From an uncultured Verrucomicrobiae bacterium (GTDB taxonomy: Bacteria > Verrucomicrobiota > Verrucomicrobiia > Chthoniobacterales > Chthoniobacteraceae): a stretch of 64,000 nt of DNA. Each line of letters opens with the position of its first letter. The first letter of the stretch is position 1. A program made the position numbers and the translations under genes. This document shows positions 509 to 32,334 of this stretch, piece by piece. The DNA lies in the NCBI GenBank assembly GCA_963769025.1, contig CAVYKI010000009.1, positions 1,216,001-1,280,000 of the forward strand, written 5' to 3'. The notes under the pieces are model-generated. The model worked only from the letters and a program-made list of their open reading frames with translations. It was not told the origin of the DNA and searched no databases.

Positions 509-2211
509 TTACTCGTCGTCCGACATTGTCGCGCTGATGACTTCCTCCGCCGTCGTCATGCCCGGAGAGCACTTTGCGGATGCCGTCCTCGCGCAGCGTG
601 CGCATGCCCATTTCGCGTGCCCGCTTGCGCAGGTCCACGGTCGTCGCCCGCGTGTTCACCATGTGGCGCACCGTGTCGTCCACCTCGAAAATCTCGAAGA
701 TGCCCATCCGGCCCTTTGCACCGAGCCCCTTGCACTTTTCGCAACCCGTCCCATGCGCGACGCTCGCCTCGCTGAGCTGCGATGCGTCGATGCCCGAGCG
801 CGCTGATCTCCACCGCAGTCAGCTCCGTGGGCTGCTTGCAGTTCGGGCAAATCTTGCGGACCAGCCGCTGCGCAATCATCGCTCGCACCGCGGAGGACAC
901 GAGGAACGGCTGCACGCCGATATCCACAAGACGCGCGATGGCGCTCGGCGCGTCGTTCGTGTGCAGCGTGGAAAAGACGAGATGGCCGGTGAGCGCGGCG
1001 TTGATCGCGATGTTCGCGGTTTCCGGATCGCGAATTTCACCGATCATGATGATGTTCGGCGCCTGGCGCAGCATCGCGCGGAGCGCTGCCGGGAAGGTCA
1101 TCCCGACCTCCGCATTCACCTGCACCTGGTTGATGCCGCTCATCTGATACTCCACGGGATCCTCGACCGTGATGAGCTTCTTGTCCGGCTTGTTGATGTA
1201 GTTGAGGCACGCGTACAGCGTCGTCGTCTTTCCGGAACCGGTCGGGCCGGTGACGAGCAGGATCCCATCCGGCAGGCGCAGCAGCCGTTCAAAGACCTCC
1301 TGGTCGTCGCTCAAAAATCCGAGCTGCGGCAGACCGAGCGAAAGCGACGTCTTGTCGAGAATACGCATGACCACCGACTCGCCGTGCGCGGTCGGGATCG
1401 TCGAAACGCGCAGGTCCAGGCTTTTCTTGCCCATCTTTACCTGGATGCGTCCGTCCTGCGGCAGGCGCTTCTCGGCGATGGACATCGTGCCCGTCATGAT
1501 CTTCAGGCGCGACACGATCGCCGCCTGCAGCTTTTTCGGCGGGTTCTGCATCTCGTGCAGCACGCCATCGATCCGGAAGCGGACCCGCAGCCGCTTTTCC
1601 AGCGGCTCCACGTGGATGTCCGAAGTCCGCGAGTTGTACGCCTCCACCAGCATCATCGTCACGAGCTTGATGATCGGCGCATCGCCCACCTCCCCTTGCG
1701 CGCCTTCCACGTCCACCTCCTGCCCGCCGATCTGGATTCCTCCCGCAAGGTTTTCCATCGTCGCCACCGCATCCTCGGCGGTGCCGTAGTATTTCATCAG
1801 CGCCGCCTTCATCGAATCCGGCGTCGTGCAAAGGAACTCCACCTCGCGCTGGAGCACCGCCTGGATCGCATCGAGCGTGTCGAAATTCAGCGGGTCATCC
1901 ACCGCGACCACCACACCGCCGAGTTCGGTCGTCGCCACCGGCACCACGCGGTAACGCCGTGCGGTATCGGCGGGGATCAACTCGAGCACGTCCTGCGAAA
2001 CGGTGATTCCGTCGAGAACCACGAAATCCATCGCCGCGTTCGAAGCCACCGCCCGCGCCACATCCTCCTGCGTGATCAAATTCCGGTCGATCATCGCCTG
2101 GATCACCGTCTTTCCCGGCTTCAGCCCCTGGCGGACCTCCTCCACCTGGCTCGTGGTGACCAGCGCGTTCTCGATGAGGATTTCCAGGATGTAATCGTCG
2201 TTTGCAGCCAC
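509..2211 (-). CDS. pilB: Type IV pilus assembly / T2SS ATPase (PilB/GspE family); one frameshift near 790
   Basis: SDIHVEP, IAEKRLPQDGR, Walker A GPTGSGKTTT, TVEDPVEY, GEIRD, GHLVFSTLHTND, QRLVRKICPNC. C-terminus (GCEKC...GRMGIFE...TMSDDE*) is in another frame. Confidence 0.92.
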
Positions 2212-2396
2212 GGTCAGGGATGGTTCTCGGGAAAGATGTTCGGGGTCGGGCTGTTTCGCTCGGTGCCCGGGGACGATTTCAAACATTCCTCGTTTCTTAT
2301 CAACCACGGATTTGAGGAATTGTCTGTTTTGACCGTTGCGCAACGCGCCAGTCCGCCCTTGCCGCAACCTCGCAGCGCGGCTATGGACGCGCCCTC

Positions 2397-2921
2397 ATGA
2401 AATCACTCCTCGCCCTCGTTTGCGCCATTTTCGTCACCACAGTCCACGCCGGAGACTCCGGAAAATTCACCGTCGGCGCATATAACTTCTCCCGCCCCGC
2501 CGATTGGAAATCCATCGAGCCCACCTCGCCCATGCGCAAGGCCCAGCTCCAGGTCCCCGGCAAGGACGGCGGCAAGCCGGCCGACATCACGTTCTTCTTT
2601 TTCGGCGAAGGAAACGGCGGCGGCGTCCAGCCGAATGTGCAGCGCTGGCTCGGCCAGATCGCCGGCAAGCCCGACGCGAACAAGGTCGATACCCAGGAGT
2701 TCAACGGCGTGAAAGTCACCGTCGTCTCCGCCGAAGGCACGCTCAAGGCCGCCCCGATGGCAGGAATCGCCGAGGAACTCACCGATGCCGCCCTCCTCGG
2801 CGCCATCATCGAGCACGGGGAAGGCGCGGTCTTCGTCAAGATGACCGGCCCCGCCCCGCTGGTGAAAGAGAACCGCGAAAAGTTCCTCGGCCTCATCAAA
2901 TCCGCGACGGAGAAAAAGTAA
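2397..2921 (+). CDS. Secreted hypothetical protein
   Basis: Signal-peptide-like N-terminus (MKSLLALVCAIFVTTVHA), coding-like codon usage, motifs NVQRWLGQ and FVKMTGP. Confidence 0.75.
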   Translation: MKSLLALVCAIFVTTVHAGDSGKFTVGAYNFSRPADWKSIEPTSPMRKAQLQVPGKDGGKPADITFFFFGEGNGGGVQPNVQRWLGQIAGKPDANKVDTQEFNGVKVTVVSAEGTLKAAPMAGIAEELTDAALLGAIIEHGEGAVFVKMTGPAPLVKENREKFLGLIKSATEKK

Positions 2922-2923
2922 CC

Positions 2924-3298
2924 ATGGCCGATCTGCCGACGAGTTACTACGTCCACTCGCTGATCGAGATTCTCCACTACATCAGCGACGACCTGCTGCA
3001 GTGCGACTCCGGCACCACCGTCGCCGAACTCTTCAGCGACGACTTCGACGACCTCGACTTCGAGCTCGCGCTCACGTGCTTTGAAGGGACCCACCGGCTC
3101 GCCTTCAAGGAGCACGTCTGGAAGGACGAACTCGCGAGCTTCGAGGAAAAGACCATCGAGGAATTCGTCGAGGAATACCTCGATCCCCGTGAGCAAAAGG
3201 ATCCCCTGTTCGTCACCAAGCGCTTCCTCTTCTACGAGAAGTCCCTCGCCGAAGCCCTCCGCGAGGAATACGAGTCCCCGCCCCCAGGCGATTACTAA
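2924..3298 (+). CDS. Acidic hypothetical protein with weak acyl-carrier-protein-like pattern
   Basis: ATG 2 nt after the upstream stop; MADLPTSYY...ELFSDDFDDLDFELAL...KTIEEFVEEYL. Confidence 0.7.
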   Translation: MADLPTSYYVHSLIEILHYISDDLLQCDSGTTVAELFSDDFDDLDFELALTCFEGTHRLAFKEHVWKDELASFEEKTIEEFVEEYLDPREQKDPLFVTKRFLFYEKSLAEALREEYESPPPGDY

Positions 3299-3557
3299 TC
3301 CCGCACCCGCGGGCCGCGGCGCCCGCGGAGTGAACGCCAGCGCACCGTCTGCAAGCGGACTCCACCGGCCCTTTCGCAAAGCGCGCCAACGGATCTCCCG
3401 CGAACGGACACCAGCGGCGTTCCATCAACCAGCCCAGGGTCGCGAGGAACGAGCTCCCCTGGGTTCCGTCATCAAAACGAATCCCACCGGGCTTCCACTC
3501 GCATTCCGCCGAAAGACTTGCCCCGCGTTTCGCGTTCCGCCATTTCCGTGGGCTACG

Positions 3558-21135: not shown

Positions 21136-22574
21136 ATGAACCCGCTCGAACGCTTCCGCACCGTGTTTCCCGCGGAGCGGATGCTCACCGGGCCCGCGCA
21201 ACTCGGCGCGTATGAGTCCGACGGGCTCACCGCCTTTCACGCGCGCCCGCTCGGCATCGTCGTGCCGGAGACGCAGGAGGAAGTGATCGCCGCGGTCCGC
21301 CTCTGCCGCGAACTCGCGCTGCCCTTCGTCGCACGCGGCAGCGGCACGAGCCTCTCGGGCGGATCGCTGCCGGTGGAAAATGGAATCGTCATCGCGCTGA
21401 ACCGGCTCAACCGCATCCTTCGCCTCGATCCGCGCGAACGCATCGCCGTCGTCGAGCCGGGCGTCATCAACACGCAGGTGACCGCCGCCGCGGAAGAGCA
21501 CGGGCTCCACTACGCGCCCGACCCGTCGTCGCAGACCATCTGCACCATCGGCGGAAATGTCGCCTTCAACTCCGGCGGCGCGCACTGCCTGAAGTACGGC
21601 ATGACGTCGAACCACGTCCTCGGCATCAAGGCCGTGCTCGCGACCGGCGAAGTCGTGGAATTTGGCGGAGCGAGCCGCGAGCAGGTCGGCGCGGACTTCA
21701 CCGGACTGTTCACCGGCAACGAAGGCCTCTTCGGCATCGCGCTTGAAATCACCTGCAACTGCTGCCGCGCGCCGAGTGCTTTCACACCGTCCTCGCCGGC
21801 TACCGCACGCTCGAGGAAGCCGGCAACGCCGTGAGCGCCGTGGTCGCCAGCGGGCTGCTGCCGGGCGCAATCGAGATCATGGATACGCTCGCGATCCAAG
21901 CCGCCGAGGCCGCTGTCCATGCCAACTACCCGCGCGATTGCGAAGCGATGCTCATCGTCGAACTTGAAGGCCCGCGCGAGAAAGTCGCGGTCGAGCGCGC
22001 TCATCTCGATGCACTCCTCGCCGCATCGCAGCCGGTCGAGACACGCGTCGCACGCAATGGCTCAGAGCGCGGCGCGATCTGGAAAGGCCGCAAGTGCGCG
22101 TTCAGCGCCGTCGGACGCCTGTCGCCGGACTTCATCGTGCAGGACGGCGTCGTCCCACGCCAGCGGCTCGGCGAAGCGCTCCGGCGCATCGGCGAAATGA
22201 GCACCGCCGCCGGCCTGCGCGTCGCGAATGTCTTCCATGCCGGCGATGGCAATCTGCACCCGCTCATCCTCTACAATGGCCGCGAAGCCGGGGCGCTCGC
22301 CCGCGCGGAGGAACTCGCCGGCCGCATCCTGCGCATGTGCGTGGAAATGGGCGGCAGCCTCACCGGCGAGCACGGCATCGGCATGGAAAAGCGCGATTAC
22401 CTTGGCGACATGTTCAGCGCCGCGGAGATCGATCTTATGCAGCGCCTGCGCGCCGCATTCGACCCGCTCGGAATTTCCAATCCCGGAAAAATGTTCCCCG
22501 GCGGCAATGCGCCCGCGCTCGTGCAACACGGCCTCCACCCGCTCGAAGCCTCCGGCCTGCTCAGCCGGGAGTGA
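21136..22574 (+). CDS. glcD: Glycolate oxidase GlcD-like FAD-linked oxidase; frameshift near 21760
   Basis: [67 protein letters not shown]. Confidence 0.88.
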
Positions 22575-25755: not shown

Positions 25756-26122
25756 TCAGGCCTCAAACGGATTGATGAGTCGCAGCCCGCTGACGTGTTT
25801 GAAGTCGTCCACGTTCCGCGTCACCAGTTCCAAGCCATGCACCAGGGCCGTAGCGGCGATGATGGCGTCCGCTAGTGCCCATCCTGCTTTCCTGCCGCAA
25901 CGCGATGGCCCGATCGATGACCGCCGTATCCAGCGGATGCACCGTCAGGCGGCGAAACAAAATGTCGAGCGCGGCTTTCTCCTCCGGTTTCAGCCCCGTG
26001 AACCCATACACCTCGATCGGTGTGACGCTGGCCACCCCATTGTCCCCGGAGACCACCAGCGCCTCGATTTCCGGCACGGTCTGGTTCGCTGCGTAAATCA
26101 GAATGTTGCTGTCCAGGAGCAT
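25756..26122 (-). CDS. vapC: VapC-family PIN-domain toxin; frameshift near 25875
   Basis: LLDSNILIY...IEVYG, then in the shifted frame ADAIIAATALVHGLELVTRNVDDF...LINPF. Confidence 0.88.
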
Positions 26123-26125
26123 CGC

Positions 26126-26386
26126 TCAATCCCGGCCCGGCATCGGACGGTCTTTGCGGATTTCCCGCTGCCAGGCCACGGGGTCGGTGATCTCCTTGAA
26201 CGTGCCCATCTCCCGCAACCGCTTGAGCGCGGCCAGCGCCGCCTCCCGCGTCGGTCGTTCGCTTTCCTCGGACGCAGCTTCGATGGTGGCCGTCACTTTC
26301 AACTTGGAATTGCGCAACTCTGCCGGCAGCGGCAGATGCACCGTGCCATCGGCGTCGGCTTCCAAAATCGCGGTGATCGTGCTCAC
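26126..26386 (-). CDS. Putative antitoxin of the VapC toxin
   Basis: 86-aa ORF 3 nt upstream of vapC; GTVHLPLP N-terminus and DPVAWQREIR..R C-terminus typical of small PIN-associated antitoxins. Confidence 0.75.
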   Translation of the reverse strand: MSTITAILEADADGTVHLPLPAELRNSKLKVTATIEAASEESERPTREAALAALKRLREMGTFKEITDPVAWQREIRKDRPMPGRD

Positions 26387-26497
26387 GCAAAGAGATTACC
26401 CCGGCGCGTGCCCTGCGTAAAGCCGCGACTCGCCCGCTTTCTCGTTCCAATCGCGCTCCAAGGCTCCCAGTCCTCGGCTTGCGGAGGCGTCTGCCAA

Positions 26498-29400
26498 TTA
26501 CCCTTTGAGAACCTTCTCCCGCCACCGCCGCACGCTGCTCAGGTCCAGCCGTTCGCCTTTGAACTCGATCTGCTTCACCGGCTTCGTCCCGTTCGCGCTT
26601 TCGCGTTGGAGCACGCTCGATGATTTCCATCCAGCGCACGTCGGCGAATTCCAGCTTCGTCACTGCCGATCGCGCGCTCGTCGTCCTCCGAGAAGGTGCC
26701 GATCACCAGCATCACCGGATGCGGCTGCTGGATCCACGTCTTCACCCAGCGCTGCTTCTTGATCGTGAAAACCTCCGCGCCGTCGGTCTTGCGCTTCGTG
26801 AGGTGGGAATTGCCGGACTTGAGTTGCAGGTAGAGGCCGGCGTGCCGATGCCGTTCGCCGTCGTCATTGGTGAACTCGAGCTCAGCATATCCAGCCCGTC
26901 GTCCTCCGTCCGCCGGAATCTCGAAGCACTTCTGATCGGCGCTGGTGATGCGCGCGCCGACCTCCAGCGCCAGCAGCTTCCCGCGTCGGCGGGTACTCCA
27001 GCTTCGCGAGATCATCGGCCTGCAGTTGCTCGACCTGCGCGCGCACCGCGTCGCTGGCAAACTTCTTCTCCAGCGCATCCCACAGCGGGAAGCGCTCGCC
27101 GCAGTCGTCGCATTCCGTGTCGGCGTTCTGCTTTTCGCGCAGCAGCTTCTTCATCAGCACCTCGGGATTGCCTTTCGGCGCGTGACACTTCGGGCAGACG
27201 TAGTGCCGGAGCCGTTGCGCCTGTTCGCAGGAGGTCTGGAGGTGCGCGTGGATGTAGTTGGCAAAGATCACCTGCTCCTGCTGCGTCACGCCCTTGCCGA
27301 AATAGACGCTGATGTCCCCGTCGCTGCCGCTCTCGCGCGTGAGCTTGAGGCCCATGTGATGATCGCCCGCGAGCGTCACGAAGTCCGCGGCGTCGCGCCA
27401 GAGTTCCTTGAGTTGTGAAGGACTCGCTGTCCGCCAGCTTCACCACCAGCGTCGCGTAGATGTCGTCGAGAAAGCCCTTCACCGCGTAGCTCACGAAGAC
27501 CGACGGATGCTCCAGCACCGCCGGGCGGTCGCGTCCGCAATGGCTCGGGAAGACGAGCTTGTCGCCCTGGCGCAGGCAGAGGCCGCGCTGCTCCAGTTGC
27601 CGCTCCATCTCGCCCAGCACCACGCGCTCCTCGGCGGGCGGCAGGCGCTTCATCTCCACGGGAGCGCCGTCGCGCCCGATGCTCTGGTAGATCAGCTTCC
27701 CTTCCGCGATGCTGCGCAGCGGCAGCACGCCGAGATCGTTCTCCGCGCTGCGCAGGGTGCGAATCACGGCTTGCGCGTAGGCATTGATCCACTCCGGCGC
27801 GAGCAGGATGTAGGTGCCGTAGTCGAGTTCCTTCACCACGCCGGGACCGTCCAGCAGGCCGATCACCGTCTGCAAGGTCTCGTCCGTGAAGCGCGGTTCG
27901 TCCGGCAGGCGCCGCCAGAGCAGTTCGCGCAGTTCCTTGAAGGTGTGCAGCACCTGCCCTTCGTCCCGCAGCTTCAGGATCTCGTCCTTGATCAGTTTGA
28001 AAATGCGCGGCGACGTGCGCTTCTCCATCTGCGCCCAGGATGCCGGCGATCATGGCCGCGCGCAGTTCGTCGCAGCCGGTGCCGTCCTTCGCGCTCGTCT
28101 CATGGTAGGCGAGCCCCTGTTCCTTCGCAAAGGCTTGCAGCTTTCCCCGGCTCGCCTTGAAGCCGGTATCGATCCGCCCGGCCACGAGGAAGTGCGAAAT
28201 CTTCTCCTTCACGCTGCGCCGCAGAGCCGTCTGCCAGTCGCGCAGACCGGGCAGGACATCCTCTTGGTCCGCATTGAACAGTAGCAGGATGAGTGCGGTG
28301 CGATCCATGTAGAGCTGGTGAATGAGGCGTTGATCCGCCTGCCCGCCGAAATCCCATAGCCAGATGTCCCGTTCTACACCTTGCTCCACACTGGCGGCCT
28401 TGAGTTGCCACTGCGTGGACCACGCGCCAACCGTGGAGTCTTCACTCGGCTTCCATTCGCCGGTGGCGAGACGGTGCGTCAACCCGGTCTTGCCCGAGTG
28501 AGTATCGCCGACCAGGAGGACTTTGGCGTTGGTATATTCAATTTGGTCGCGCCAGAGAGGTAGGTCGTACGCGCGAGATGCGGACGCTCGTGCTTCAGCA
28601 GTTAATTCTTCCAAATCCCACACCCTAATTCCTCCGCGCTTGTCGCCGGAGAACGCGTAGCGTTGTTCTGCGCTCCACGCCACGATGCGGATTTCGTGTT
28701 TGTGACCTCTGAGCACTAGCAAACAGCGGCCAGTCTCGATATCCCAAAGGCGCACGGTGTTATCTGACGAACCAGACAATGCACGGCTCGCATCGCTGTT
28801 CAAAGCCAAGCTCGTAACTCGATTCGCATGGCCTTCGAGCACACGTAAACATCGCGCCGAGTCCGCCTCCCAAACACGAATAGTTCTATCGTGTGAACCG
28901 GACAATATGAGACGTTGATCGGCACTCCACGCTATACTCCGAACCTGACCAGTATGGCCTCCAAACACGCGAAGACACTCTCCGGTCTCAATGTCCCATT
29001 GGCGCACACTGTGGTCGTCAGAGCATGACAAGCCGCGGCGCTGGTCAGCACTCCACATTACACGCCAAACTAGAGAATAGTGTCCTTCAAACACGCGAAG
29101 ACATTGGCCTGTCTCAATATCCCATAGCCGCATCGTGCCATCGTCCGAGCCCGAAAGTGCGCGAGCGTTGTCCGCGCTCCACTCGGCGTGCCGAACCGCG
29201 TTTGTGTGACCCTGAAAGACTCGATTACGTCTCCGTGAATTAAAATCCCACATTCGCATGGTCTTGTCCGAAGAGCATGTGAGAATACGCCGCTGGTCAT
29301 TGCTCAGGGCGACACTGTTCACACGACTAGCATGGCCTCTGAAAGTAAGGAGGCACAATCCCGTCTTCGCATCCCAAAGCCGCGCTATGTTCTCAGTCCC

Positions 29401-29925
29401 ACCTGTTAGCGCGTGGTTACCGCTTGGGCTGAACACAAACGCTAAAAGCCTCCCCTTCGATCGAAGCTGGACGGCATTTGCCTCAACCTCCTCCTCCTCT
29501 TCCGTCGGCATCGTAGGAGGCGGCCGGCACGCTTCGAGGAGCTTCACATATTCCTGCTCGCGCTCTGCCGGGCGCCAGTTGATGTAAAGGAATTGCGCCA
29601 GGGAGCCTTTGATGGGGGCGTCGTCGAGGCGCAGGGGAAGGAAGCGGCGCTCCTTGTTCAGCGGGTCGCGAAAGCGGAACGTGCCGGACTCCAACTGCGC
29701 CCAGTCCGAGCCGAACGCATTCGCCGACATGCAGAGCACGAGCACGCGGGAGCGCTCCAGCCCTTCCTCGATCTTCGCCGGAATGCTGTCGCCGGGCCGG
29801 ATCTCCCATTCATCGAACCACACCCGCAGCCCGTCCTTCCTCAGCCGCTCCGCCACGTCGCGCACGACCGGCTTGTCCTTCGCGCTGTGGCTCAGGAAGA
29901 CGTCGTAGGGGAAATCCTCAGGCAT
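26498..29925 (-). CDS. TIR - 7xWD40 - Roc GTPase - COR-like - Zn ribbon - DUF4365-like nuclease protein (Roco-like); several frameshifts
   Basis: TIR: YDVFLSHS..DK...W.D...I.PGD...SDWAQLE. Seven ~42-aa GH...WD repeats. Roc: GDTHSGKT, STVG, WDFGGQ, ETSAK. COR-like: ILLAPEWI...YAQAVIR. CPKC...CDDC. C-terminal DDGLD..LEF...LYLQLKSG. Pieced together from ORFs 27376-29925, 27012-28028, 26882-27379 and 26575-27078. Confidence 0.85.
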
Positions 29926-30184
29926 AAGGCGGTGGCATTTGGGACGGCGAGGACTGCGCGGCGTTTACATTTGCCGCTGCGTCCGCTGCGCCGCCGGGTG
30001 CTGTCTCGTGTGTCATGCCGCGTGGGAGGATGGAGATTCGCCGCGGAGGATGCACGATCGCGGGAAGCGAGGCGAGGAGGAAAAGCAGGACTTGGATTCG
30101 AGTGGAACGAAAAGCCTGCCGCAGGCAGCCCGAAGGGCAGCGCCGGAGGGCGCTGGCAAGCTTGGAGACGCGGGACTGGAGAGT

Positions 30185-30469: not shown

Positions 30470-30560
30470 GGCACAGCCATTTCAGATAGCGTGCCAAGTG
30501 GCATCCGTAGGTCTCGGTATGGTGGGAAGAAGGGCCGGGTGCCAGCATCCGCGCCATGAA
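30470..30560 (-). pseudogene. Possible remnant of an integrase N-terminal SAM-like domain
   Basis: SSHHTETYGCHLARYLKWLC resembles the S.RTE..Y..W.RR.I.F helix pattern of integron/phage integrase N-termini; no catalytic domain follows. Confidence 0.3.
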
Positions 30561-30838
30561 ACGGAGTAAGCCGCACACTTCTCTCGCCGCCACTGGCGGC
30601 AATGCGTGTTCCCTCCACAGCACGGCGGCCGTGTTCAGGCGCGGCGGATGGCGCGGGCCGGGACATGTGGTGGTGGGCGGTGACACCTTCCGTGGCATGG
30701 GGACGTCAGTCATGGCTGTCTATTTTCAGGGGAAGGAGTGGCAAATGACTGCCACGGGCGTCGCTGCGGGGGCAGGACGCCTGCTTGGTTCGGAAACTGC
30801 ATTCCGTCCGATGCGCGGGGGCCTTTCCGAACCCGCAG

Positions 30839-31250
30839 CAACAGTTGCCGGAGCATGGGGGAGACTCCTCCGGCCTTGGACAACACTTGCCGGAGCATGG
30901 GGGAGACTCCCCCGGCCTTGGACAACACTTGCCGGAGCTTGGGGGAGACTCCCCCGGCCTTGGACAACACTTGCCGGAGCATGGGGGAGACTCCCCCGGC
31001 CTTGGGCAACACTTGCCGGAGCATGGGGGCGACTCCTCCGGCCTTGGACAACACTTGCCGGAGCATGGGGGAAACTCTCCCGGCCTTGGACAACACTTGC
31101 CGGAGCATGGGGGAGACTCCCCCGGCCTTGGACAACACTTGCCGGAGCATGGGGGAGACTCCCCCGGCCTTGGGCAACACTTGGTGGCGCCTGGGGGAGA
31201 CTCCTTCACCTCCGGACAACAGTTGGCACAGCTTTGGGGAGGCTCCTTTG
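30839..31250. repeat. Tandem array of ~10 x 42-bp units, each with an internal hairpin
   Basis: Unit CAACACTTGCCGGAGCATGGGGGAGACTCCCCCGGCCTTGGA starting at 30839, 30881, 30923, 30965, 31007, 31049, 31091, 31133, with degenerate copies at 31175 and 31217; no spacers. Confidence 0.95.
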
Positions 31251-31413
31251 CCTCGGAAAACGCCTGTTTTCCGGCTTGGCCGCCCTGATTACCCCCGCGC
31301 CCGCGATGGCGGCGTGGGATGAAGGGGCCTGGGATGATGGATTCTGGGACACGCCGACGCCGCCCGCCTTTCCGCTGATTCCGCAGGCCAAAAAACCAAC
31401 CAACCGAAAAACC

Positions 31414-32334
31414 ATGGCTACAAACCCAACCCCCGATGACGATGACGTGCTCATCTCCCTGACCGAAGAACTCGCCGACGGCTGCCACCTGCACGAGGTG
31501 GCCCTCGGCATCAAGCAACAGACCGAGGCGGTCATGCGCGCCGGCCTGCTGGCGTCCAAGACCGCCCTCCTGGGCCTCGGCGCCGCGCGCGTGCTGGTGG
31601 ACCAGAAGAACGACCTCTTCCAGGCGGCGGACGCCGCGGGCGAGACCGTGCTGAAGAACTGCCGCCTGCGGCTGGTGAAACTCTTCGGCACGCAATACAA
31701 CTCCAACTGGCAGGCCGCGGGCTGGCCCGACCAGTCCACGAAAATCCCGCTCAGCCAGGACAAGCGCCTGACGCTGCTCGGCGCGCTGGATCTCTACTTC
31801 ACCGCCAATCCCTCCGCGGAGAGCGAGGACATGGACGCGACCGCCGCCATCTGCCACACCGCGCACGAGGCCATCAGCGATGCGCGGGGCGCGGTGAATG
31901 TGGCGGATTCCGGAGTGACGACGGCGAAGAACACGCTGACGAGCACGATGAAGACCCTGCGCAAGCGGGTGCGCGGCCTCATCGTGGAACTGGGCACGCT
32001 CATGGCCGACGATGACGCGCGCTGGGAGCAGTTCGGCCTGAACATCCCGGCCAACCCCTCGGCCCCCGAGGCGATCGAAGACCTCACGCTCACCGCACTC
32101 GGCGGCGCCAGGGTGCTCGCGCAATGGCCCTACGCCACGCGGATGACGGGCACGCGCATCATGCTGAAGCGCATCGGCACGGACGACGACCCGGTCTCCG
32201 CCGGCAGCGTCGGCGGCCTGGAAAAAGTGCTCGCCGCCCTGACGGTCGGCCAGACCATCGAGGTCTTTGTCATCGCCCACAACGACGGCGGCGACGCCGC
32301 ACCGAGCCCCACGAAGAGCGTGGTGGTGACGTGA
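31414..32334 (+). CDS. Helical-bundle protein with C-terminal fibronectin type III-like domain (possible in-frame upstream start at 31306)
   Basis: A/C-rich leader before ATG 31414; long amphipathic helices with W..AGW and W..FGL motifs; C-terminal P....L.L...G...V...W......L..G....V.V.AHNDGG...PS Fn3-like pattern. Confidence 0.75.
   Translation: MATNPTPDDDDVLISLTEELADGCHLHEVALGIKQQTEAVMRAGLLASKTALLGLGAARVLVDQKNDLFQAADAAGETVLKNCRLRLVKLFGTQYNSNWQAAGWPDQSTKIPLSQDKRLTLLGALDLYFTANPSAESEDMDATAAICHTAHEAISDARGAVNVADSGVTTAKNTLTSTMKTLRKRVRGLIVELGTLMADDDARWEQFGLNIPANPSAPEAIEDLTLTALGGARVLAQWPYATRMTGTRIMLKRIGTDDDPVSAGSVGGLEKVLAALTVGQTIEVFVIAHNDGGDAAPSPTKSVVVT

Follow-up and report, generated by a model that had tools for sequence, protein, structure and literature searches.

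A variable, A/T-shifted WD40 array in a mosaic ROCO-type gene of an uncultured Verrucomicrobiae bacterium

Introduction

Bacterial AP-GTPases, that is Roc-COR (ROCO) proteins, have been predicted to be "counter-invader" proteins (Kaur, Iyer, Burroughs and Aravind 2021, eLife 10:e70394, PMC8195603). A gene of related build lies on a 64,000-nt stretch of DNA, here called the window, from an uncultured Verrucomicrobiae bacterium (GenBank assembly GCA_963769025.1, contig CAVYKI010000009.1, positions 1,216,001 to 1,280,000), and its WD40 repeat array is poorer in G+C than the rest of the gene. An earlier note, made from the letters of the window alone, had taken this array for a low-GC sensor cassette that was either swapped in by recombination or is rapidly diversifying, as in the fungal HET-D/HET-E proteins.

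The AP-GTPases of Kaur et al. 2021 and the window protein have in common a Roc domain followed by COR, a fast-evolving repeat sensor N-terminal of Roc, a variable C-terminal effector, a predicted role in conflict or immunity and lateral transfer. They differ in the sensor, which consists of leucine-rich repeats in the former and of a seven-bladed WD40 array in the latter, and in the N-terminal TIR and C-terminal DUF4365 nuclease-like domains added in the window protein. The passages of Kaur et al. 2020 (PMC7159879) that concern Roc-COR proteins touch on them briefly, and the TIR-WD40-Roc-COR-DUF4365 arrangement was not found in these passages.

The WD40 repeats of the fungal HET-E/HET-D (NWD) NLRs are highly conserved internally (Paoletti, Saupe and Clave 2007, PMC1805685). 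The likeness to them lies in the combination of a WD40 sensor, an NTPase switch and a death effector, in a conserved scaffold with a few hypervariable positions per repeat, presumably on the interaction face, and suggestive signs of diversifying selection, and in some family members with repeats 80% identical. The NTPase, however, is Roc-COR and not NACHT (STAND), and the repeats of the window share only 0.45 (protein) and 0.52 (DNA) identity with no sign of concerted evolution, against about 80-90% conservation in the fungal genes, although some relatives of the window gene reach 0.80 and 0.82. Furthermore, there is usually one copy per genome and no paralogue pool, and bacteria have no repeat-induced point mutation (RIP), diversity being spread by transfer between phyla. 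The analogy of the earlier note is thus good for the variable positions, but it fails for the internal conservation of repeats and for the type of NTPase.

Highly repetitive prokaryotic WD40 proteins, with 2ymu as the solved example, were described by Hu et al. 2017 (Sci Rep 7:10585, PMC5587647). These are also bacterial propellers, with near-identical blades and variable residues at predicted top-face hotspots, but a term search of the paper found none of the words "TIR", "Roc" and "codon", and the architecture, mosaic borders and compositional dip reported here are undescribed in it. Sensors of bacterial conflict systems diversified by diversity-generating retroelements (DGR) were reported by Dore et al. 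2024 (PNAS, PMC10907252). There, too, a putative antigen sensor is diversified within an NTPase-centred conflict protein, in some cases with a TIR effector; their diversified targets have the C-type lectin fold and are accompanied by a template repeat and a reverse transcriptase, neither of which was found for the WD40 array of the window. A special evolutionary regime was suggested for the repeats of bacterial NLRs in the preprint of Dyrka et al. 2020. Among open-access papers and preprints, none was found on a trough of third-position G+C in bacterial WD40 sensors or on this architecture.

The structural prototype of the ROCO type is the Roco protein of Chlorobium tepidum (3dpt, 3dpu, 6hlu). 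At the C-terminus, a Pfam DUF4365 match in the window protein and an Aga_REase match in its homolog P0112, both weak, recall the DUF4365/REase nucleases associated with short Argonautes (presumably the systems named SPARDA-type); unlike there, no Argonaute/APAZ partner is present and the nuclease-like region is fused to a ROCO switch.

Results

Base Composition of the Gene

The gene and its parts are listed below, with positions in the window (GC3, G+C content at third codon positions; aa, amino acids).

26498-29925, reverse strand: whole gene, TIR - seven WD40 repeats - Roc - COR (with Zn ribbon) - DUF4365, about 1,140 aa if intact
29539-29901, reverse strand: TIR domain (aa 9-129); Pfam TIR_2, E 1.3e-28, profile positions 1-121 of 122
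29476-29523, reverse strand: Pro/Glu-rich linker PPPTMPTEEEEEVEAN; upstream border, where DNA homology to relatives ends and GC3 falls
28585-29475, reverse strand: WD40 array of seven blades with a regular 42-aa period; Pfam WD40, E 2.4e-63
28531-28584, reverse strand: stretch between WD40 and Roc; downstream border, homology restarting at QIEYTNAKV
28045-28530, reverse strand: Roc small GTPase (GDTHSGKT, DFGGQ, SAK); Pfam Roc, E 7.9e-19, and Ras, E 2.2e-19
27012-28034, reverse strand: COR (COR-A and COR-B, with a CxxC...CxxC Zn ribbon in COR-B), in two frames with an extra base near 27416
26498-27006, reverse strand: DUF4365 region (PD-(D/E)xK-type, nuclease-like), with seven small indels as assembled
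28246-29553, reverse strand: low-GC3 tract (codons 125-560) of a two-change-point fit; linker, WD40 array and first two thirds of Roc

The low G+C of the WD40 array is real and strong, and it is not a general WD40 effect. The hand counts of the earlier note were exact (29/60 at 28861-28920, 27/60 at 29221-29280, 44/60 at 27601-27660 and 37/60 at 29761-29820). In 300-nt windows, G+C is 0.537-0.567 over 28500-29549 and 0.62-0.69 to either side. In-frame GC3 drops from 0.881 for TIR to 0.60 for the linker and 0.556 for WD40 and recovers to 0.788 for Roc, where it is 0.70-0.78 within the first ~95 codons. When the frames of COR and Zn ribbon are corrected, GC3 is 0.552 inside WD40 and 0.861 outside it. 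Four-fold degenerate sites outside WD40 (n=325) have 94% G+C (A.025, C.44, G.50, T.034), and those inside (n=162) have 52% (A.20, C.26, G.27, T.28); the share of CTG among Leu codons is 42/76 and 1/31, respectively. The two-change-point fit gave GC3 of 0.895, 0.596 and 0.886 for the three segments, with a log-likelihood gain of 56.7 calculated without permutation. The first change falls after codon 124, and support within 2 log-likelihood units extends over codons 102-148 and 532-569. GC3, whose profile the earlier note had proposed as a check, is therefore not uniform but has its trough at WD40, and the abrupt appearance of A/T-ending codons at the linker and their fading within Roc are confirmed by both the profile and the fit. 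In the own genome, the 960-nt WD40 segment (GC 0.552) is within the lowest 0.54% of 44,376 windows, and the eight other WD40 arrays have GC3 of 0.74-0.90.

Selection on codons could give such a composition if A/T-ending or mixed codons lowered the DNA identity between blades, so that fewer blades are lost, or slowed translation for the sake of folding. The nearly equiprobable four-fold sites of the window array do minimise repeat identity, and no DNA repeat is detectable: no tandem repeat was found in the array by Tandem Repeats Finder (27000-30000) or a second repeat search, and the sole internal DNA match is 71% over 145 nt. Same-residue codon identity between the repeats of the window is 0.32, with 0.30 expected by chance. 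In the family (see below), however, this identity equals or exceeds chance in 61 of 63 arrays (mean 0.51 vs 0.36) with no over-dispersion, by which codon scrambling against blade recombination is ruled out as the main cause. Other WD40 arrays, both those of the own genome and those in other architectures, fold without such codons. Codon selection of either kind is regarded as a slim prospect.

The Dip in Related Genes

A protein search gave 6,952 matches; among the matches listed, the architecture is shared and occurs in forms of ~1,140 aa (7 blades) and ~1,410 aa (14 blades). A scan of one genome per species recognized 178 relatives across many phyla, and 80 of these loci (L numbers below) were taken. 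According to the titles of their genomes and metagenome-assembled genomes (MAGs), they come from Acidobacteriota, Planctomycetes, Verrucomicrobiota, Nitrotoga, Gallionella, Zixiibacteriota, Binatia, Magnetospirillum and others, with flanking host GC from 0.38 to 0.74. The dip was analysed in the 67 frame-intact loci. Of the 13 left out, 3 lack a TIR, Roc or COR match on the expected strand, and in 10 the frames of TIR and Roc differ or WD40 contains stops.

In 61 of 67 loci, the WD40 array had a lower GC3 than the remainder of the gene (Wilcoxon p 6e-12, calculated on loci that are kin and not independent). The dip was present in every GC class (4/5, 20/21, 22/26 and 16/16). The A/T shift is consequently a family trait, not a one-off foreign insert. 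Mean GC3 is 0.627 for WD40 and 0.724 for the rest, and 0.736 would be predicted from the amino-acid make-up. As a control, other architectures with WD40 arrays were taken from the metagenome scan; they have no dip, WD40 being lower in 18/45, and in 2/7 where GC3 outside WD40 was 0.6 or more. The expected 0.736 against 0.627, the other arrays of the own genome and these other architectures rule out an effect common to WD40 arrays or due to amino-acid composition. The regression of WD40 on chassis GC3 (chassis meaning the gene outside the array: TIR and Roc-COR-nuclease) crosses the diagonal at ~0.41 and not at the pool mean, WD40 being lower in low-GC3 chassis too. Regression to the pool mean is thereby ruled out, and random exchange of cassettes among hosts is no explanation. 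The meta-profile of 66 loci is a trough with soft shoulders of ~30 codons on either side. The deficit of the window gene ranked sixth of 68 when computed with its Zn ribbon piece out of frame.

The direction of change was read from 21 repetitive arrays. Their majority-codon GC3 is 0.82, which is chassis-like, and derived synonymous changes number 214 GC>AT and 67 AT>GC, giving an implied equilibrium GC3 of 0.59. C>T (107) and G>A (74) make up 181 of 328 derived changes. Among the family arrays, that of the window stands at the diverged end, with an inter-repeat DNA identity of 0.52.

As a separate observation on 371 ungapped repeats, the residues E11, D25 and Q26 have mostly A/T-ending codons (GC3 0.21, 0.29 and 0.35, respectively). 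These look like founder codons multiplied by repeat amplification and contribute a little to the dip.

Variability of the WD40 Array

The array is also the variable part of the protein. Identity to the homolog P0112 is 86% in TIR, 48% in WD40, 85% in Roc, 98% in COR and 99% in the Zn ribbon; among 119 homologs, WD40 identity does not exceed 56%, and COR ranges from 43% to 98%. When aligned with the closest loci in blastn, gene nt 1 to ~405 and ~1380 to 3415 are covered, with no match between them. High-scoring segments end at gene nt 398-409 and restart at 1379-1396, that is, at ~29525 and ~28540 of the window, and these borders agree with the extent of the cassette in the earlier note (28540 to 29490). 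In DNA, the chassis shares 92% identity with that of L059, the closest relative, but the last blades and linker of L059 are unrelated up to QVQYTNAKV. Compared with L057 at residues that are the same, four-fold sites have an identity of 0.24 for WD40 (0.25 by chance), 0.67 for TIR, 0.63 for Roc and 0.83 for COR; the synonymous sites of the array are saturated. The terminal branch of the window gene is 0.68-0.78 changes per site in the WD40 tree and 0.034 in the Roc+COR tree, about 20 times shorter.

Within the 371 repeats, the highest entropy (3.1-4.0 bits) was found at positions 15, 16 and 18, behind GH, and at 34 and 36, in the S-x-D-x-T motif, while G12, H13, S31, R39 and W41 are conserved in 92-99%. 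The conserved scaffold with variation after GH and in S.D.T, as noticed earlier in the window gene, is hence a property of the family. We take the five hotspots to lie on the top face of the propeller. In the 12 most repetitive arrays, the nonsynonymous rate (dN) at the hotspots is 0.77 and the synonymous rate (dS) of the scaffold 0.47, with a ratio >1 in 11/12; since the hotspots were picked by entropy on the same data, this contrast is suggestive only and partly circular. Positive selection may be the driver of array change. Seven repeats are present in 53 of 68 family arrays. The family WD40 profile matched 2ymu_A best among PDB sequences (E 1e-169).

The search for a WD40 donor found none, with matches of up to 56% among 119 family proteins and up to 60% (L106) in the metagenome scan. 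A search of protein representatives with the array alone listed 150 matches, all of them multi-propeller giants at most 49% identical and with at least 585 bits, so a close single-array relative could lie beyond. Contigs of four public runs from four studies (at least 88% alike) cover 26480-28549 and 29470-29925. The stretch 28550-29469 is uncovered by them except at depth 1.35 in one X2 bin, and the uncovered part is no evidence. None of the public runs holds more than 31% of sampled words, and the source sample was not found among them.

Sharp borders in blastn and synonymous saturation limited to the array would also suit a dedicated local hypermutation between linker and Roc, a bacterial counterpart of the RIP-assisted or DGR type that works, for instance, by a deaminase or error-prone repair. 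It would increase synonymous as well as nonsynonymous change and move the stretch to A/T. The excess of C>T and G>A and the restriction of the dip to this family, it being absent from other WD40 architectures, point in the same direction, and RIP was proposed to feed the diversification of fungal WD40 repeats (Paoletti et al. 2007). On the other hand, no RVT_1 reverse transcriptase is present in the genome (83% complete), blastn of the array in this genome finds the array itself alone and no template-like copy, no candidate mutator gene adjoins, and the edges of the family meta-profile are soft, not hard. Dominance of C>T and G>A is, moreover, the ordinary mutation spectrum of bacteria. Hypermutation of this kind is judged very improbable, and a diversity-generating retroelement is ruled out by the missing RVT_1 (in a genome 83% complete) and the missing template copy. 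Somewhat wider, the idea that the stretch from linker to Roc is the target of any dedicated diversification, whether programmed cassette exchange or AT-biased hypermutation, is considered quite improbable.

Mosaic Structure and Mobility of the Family

TIR and Roc-COR have different histories. In the approximately unbiased (AU) test, TIR DNA rejects the 11-vs-9 split supported at 100 by Roc+COR (p-AU 0.0003). DNA identity to L059 steps from 0.78-0.91 in Roc to 0.94-0.99 in COR at gene nt ~1870. Synteny is lacking at the L059 locus, whose flank matches another part of the own genome at 81%, so the chassis are more alike than the genomes. The window's low-GC3 block (codons ~125-560) falls within the block that is recombinant relative to this closest relative. 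L106, with the best WD40 match (60%), has a Roc-COR of the other clade (56% and 50% identity). When WD40 was tested against the chassis clade (20 rows), the AU test gave p 0.345 and did not reject this clade; the WD40 tree is star-like, with support for 1 of 17 inner branches.

Both halves of the alternative put forward in the earlier note gained support as processes. Rapid diversification is borne out by the 20-fold branch, the four-fold saturation, the five hotspots and dN>dS in 11/12 arrays, and recombination around the cassette by the breaks at nt ~400 and ~1385, the step against L059 and the rejection by TIR at p-AU 0.0003. The implied use of low GC as the mark of a foreign insert is not supported as such, with the dip in 61/67 loci and every GC class, no donor above 60% found and an AU test on WD40 (p 0.345) that does not tell a swap from divergence in place.

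A single recent import must still be weighed for the window gene itself. In this case, homologous recombination at TIR/linker and in Roc would have replaced codons ~125 to 560-625 of a high-GC copy with those of a family member that came from, or had adapted to, a background of lower GC, and the low GC would be the signature of this donor. GC3 changes in steps (0.895, 0.596, 0.886; WD40 0.55, Roc 0.74, COR 0.89), the low tract continues ~95 codons into the conserved Roc, where identity to L059 is 0.78-0.91 before rising to 0.94-0.99, codon use is near-uniform across the tract (CTG 1/31), and the family is mosaic with hosts' flanking GC from 0.38 to 0.74. Because GC3 and identity both change in steps, this explanation stays live for the window. 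However, no donor was found, the highest WD40 identity being 56% among the family proteins and 60% in the metagenome scan, and the dip occurs in 61/67 relatives, low-GC chassis included; a donor effect can thus be dispensed with, and it would leave the direction unexplained. The window's repeats are mutually saturated, so the array is old whatever its origin. Overall, a single import is rated unlikely.

Several copies differ in composition from the contigs that carry them, and two of these loci look like recent transfers: L072 has a chassis GC3 of 0.70-0.78 on a contig with 38% G+C flanks, and L065 a gene GC3 of ~0.5 on a contig with 68% G+C flanks. In the own genome's 40 relatives, DNA matches are confined to the TIR part and the 3' part. 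All 13 TIR matches examined (13/13) are truncated fragments of 61-151 aa, in same-genus genomes (L011, L013-L023) and in the own genome (L025, C9:1124960-1126384). In L011 and L015, family TIR and COR-B/DUF4365 fragments flank unrelated genes (two reverse-strand ORFs, i.e., open reading frames, and a 494-aa ORF). The fragments of the own genome sit in another low-GC stretch, C9:1123081-1127401. Truncated family fragments across relatives point to high turnover. In a Luteolibacter MAG (L057:7048-9068), a second chassis copy, 68% identical, is in tandem directly after the first. As for a mobile-element context of the window gene, no tRNA was found in 15000-42000 and there are no flanking repeats. 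Around it lie genes of ordinary metabolism and transport and a small two-gene pair.

Domain Assignments

TIR of the window protein was matched also by the PADLOC TIR models PDC-S66, ThsB and TIR-NLR. Its residues W75 and E79 are invariant in 20 sequences, and E79 presumably corresponds to the catalytic Glu of other TIRs. The Roc match spans aa 468-625, with the GDTHSGKT and WLWDFGGQ columns invariant in 20 sequences; we take these motifs to be those named P-loop and DxxG. No NACHT domain was found by Pfam, and the NTPase is Roc.

The COR piece had no match in Pfam or by PDB sequence search. The fold was tested on the homolog L057 because the window copy is frame-broken. The counterpart in L057, whose COR is 97% identical to that of the window gene, gave an AlphaFold2 model with pLDDT 84.9 and pTM 0.76, and a fold search with this model recovered the COR of C. 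tepidum Roco, 3dpt_B (E 3.1e-11, TM 0.53/0.59), and also LRRK1/2. Judged by this model, the domain after Roc is a predicted COR, and the gene is assigned to the ROCO (Roc-COR) type.

DUF4365 was matched marginally in Pfam (24.8 bits vs a cut-off of 24.3, frame piece 26578-27150) and with 25.1 bits in the own-genome search. Residues 1012-1082 of the homolog P0112 matched the PADLOC model Aga_REase-PNTD1-PNTD2 weakly (E 2.4e-4). PADLOC 2.0 had no model for the whole protein, its matches being at domain level only (TIR models, the WD stretch of HEAT-ARM_XIII, Aga_REase), and those of NCBIfam were limited to small_GTP and part of TIR.

Frameshifts in the 3' Part

As assembled, the gene consists of an 849-aa ORF at 27376-29925 followed by pieces in other frames. 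Residues 1-627 of this ORF are TIR, linker, seven WD40 repeats and Roc (Pfam), and beyond ~627 it is Arg/Ala-rich nonsense. The real continuation is in the other two frames, where the out-of-frame pieces match a full-length consensus of 19 homologs nearly residue for residue up to the gene stop codon, TAA at 26498-26500. The frame is broken by the following feature.

26618-28037, no strand assigned: nine frame-breaking indels of 1-2 nt, from alignment with six relatives

The sites are ~28037, 27416, 26996, 26912, 26885, 26853, 26837, 26658 and 26618, all in the last 1.5 kb of the gene and none in its first 1.9 kb. Most of the nine are probably assembly errors, because rpoC and a FAD-linked oxidase of the same genome are also split, contigs from outside are without the indels and COR is not decayed. 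In the own genome, rpoC (C3:128439-132440) is split across at least 3 reading frames. The FAD-linked oxidase at 21136-22571 (forward strand) of the window has its FAD_binding_4 and FAD-oxidase_C halves in abutting ORFs that join at 21831, probably another assembly frameshift. The public-run contigs lack the extra bases of the window and have its missing CG, one 677-nt contig differing by 2 mismatches and 1 gap. Protein identity to an intact homolog is 98% in COR and 99% in the Zn ribbon, which is unlike decay.

The indels, the indel errors carried by the assembly, and a genus full of truncated TIR and COR-B/DUF4365 family fragments could also mean a decaying pseudogene or an artefact whose composition has no functional meaning. 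Against this, the reading frame that TIR and Roc share stays open through the first 627 codons, among them all 315 low-GC codons, the COR and Zn ribbon are conserved as given above, near-identical contigs from other runs are without indels and rpoC is broken likewise, and the dip is present in 61/67 intact homologs of other assemblies. This explanation is scarcely credible.

In this assembly, indel errors are seemingly concentrated in conserved genes, and they may also account for the estimated completeness of 83%.

Other Loci in the Window

Directly downstream of the ROCO gene, at 25763-26386 on the reverse strand, are two small ORFs of 86 and 119 aa with no Pfam match at 1e-3. Visual inspection suggests an antitoxin and a toxin of the PIN type (the second begins MLLDSNILIY). 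At 30797-31000 (forward strand) is a 42-nt tandem repeat with three copies 96-100% alike and a fourth at 62%. It lies inside a 592-aa ORF (30556-32334) without a Pfam match.

Discussion

The low-GC block of the window gene is best explained, with chances put slightly above even, as the hypervariable WD40 sensor cassette of a mobile, mosaic, ROCO-type immune-like gene that is drifting to A/T. In this explanation, the seven-bladed WD40 propeller would be a ligand sensor, and TIR and DUF4365 two likely killing domains. The chassis modules (TIR; Roc-COR-nuclease) would move between distant bacteria and recombine with each other, whereas the WD40 array would diverge ~20 times faster, mostly at five positions per blade. 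Arrays would begin at chassis-like GC3 and then drift A/T-ward. Low GC would accordingly be the footprint of long and fast AT-biased turnover between two conserved recombination anchors, not the signature of a donor.

The cause of this drift is more conjectural. AT-biased substitutions may be fixed through linkage to selected changes at the hotspots, and the drift may go uncountered if the arrays are out of reach of homologous recombination and of GC-biased repair, to which the chassis is exposed. Such recombination and repair would not take place between arrays because these are too divergent to align. Bacterial mutation is reportedly AT-biased and conversion GC-biased, as Hershberg and Petrov in 2010, Hildebrand et al. 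in 2010 and Lassalle et al. in 2015 are said to have found.

With regard to function, the WD40 propeller would bind a trigger, presumably a phage protein, and Roc-COR would be a GTP-dependent switch and dimeriser. TIR and the DUF4365 nuclease would then deplete NAD+ and cut nucleic acid, leading to abortive infection. This putative immune role is suggested by the domains.

Several points weigh against an A/T-drifting sensor cassette. The loci with the dip are kin, not independent samples. Polarising by majority codon may inflate the GC>AT count under skewed composition. The link between divergence and dip is weak (more diverged arrays dip more, rho 0.29, p 0.019), and some highly repetitive arrays already dip (L052 -0.20, L040 -0.18). 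The circularity in the choice of hotspots counts here as well, and so do the stepwise GC3 and the extension of the low tract into Roc, both of which suit a single import. Since the WD40 tree is without resolving power, an array swap as such is unproven, and swap and in-place divergence are not separated. Linked selection and missing GC-biased conversion are a conjecture as the cause, and no whole-protein defence model was matched that would speak for immunity.

Bacterial NLR-like and ROCO-type proteins are predicted immune receptors, whose sensors would have to keep up with phages. Here, a widely transferred TIR-WD40-ROCO-nuclease family was found, with a chassis that recombines between phyla and a variable, A/T-shifted putative sensor with sharp borders. 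If dedicated diversification, improbable as it is, were true, the family would have a germline-style repertoire generator for a bacterial NLR-like receptor; the GC3 trough would be its genomic scar, and similar troughs could be used to find other diversifying sensors. If the A/T shift is a general footprint of sensor turnover, a simple GC3 profile could help to spot specificity modules in defence genes not yet characterised, and the family would serve as a natural test case for the effects of linked selection and GC-biased recombination on bacterial base composition.

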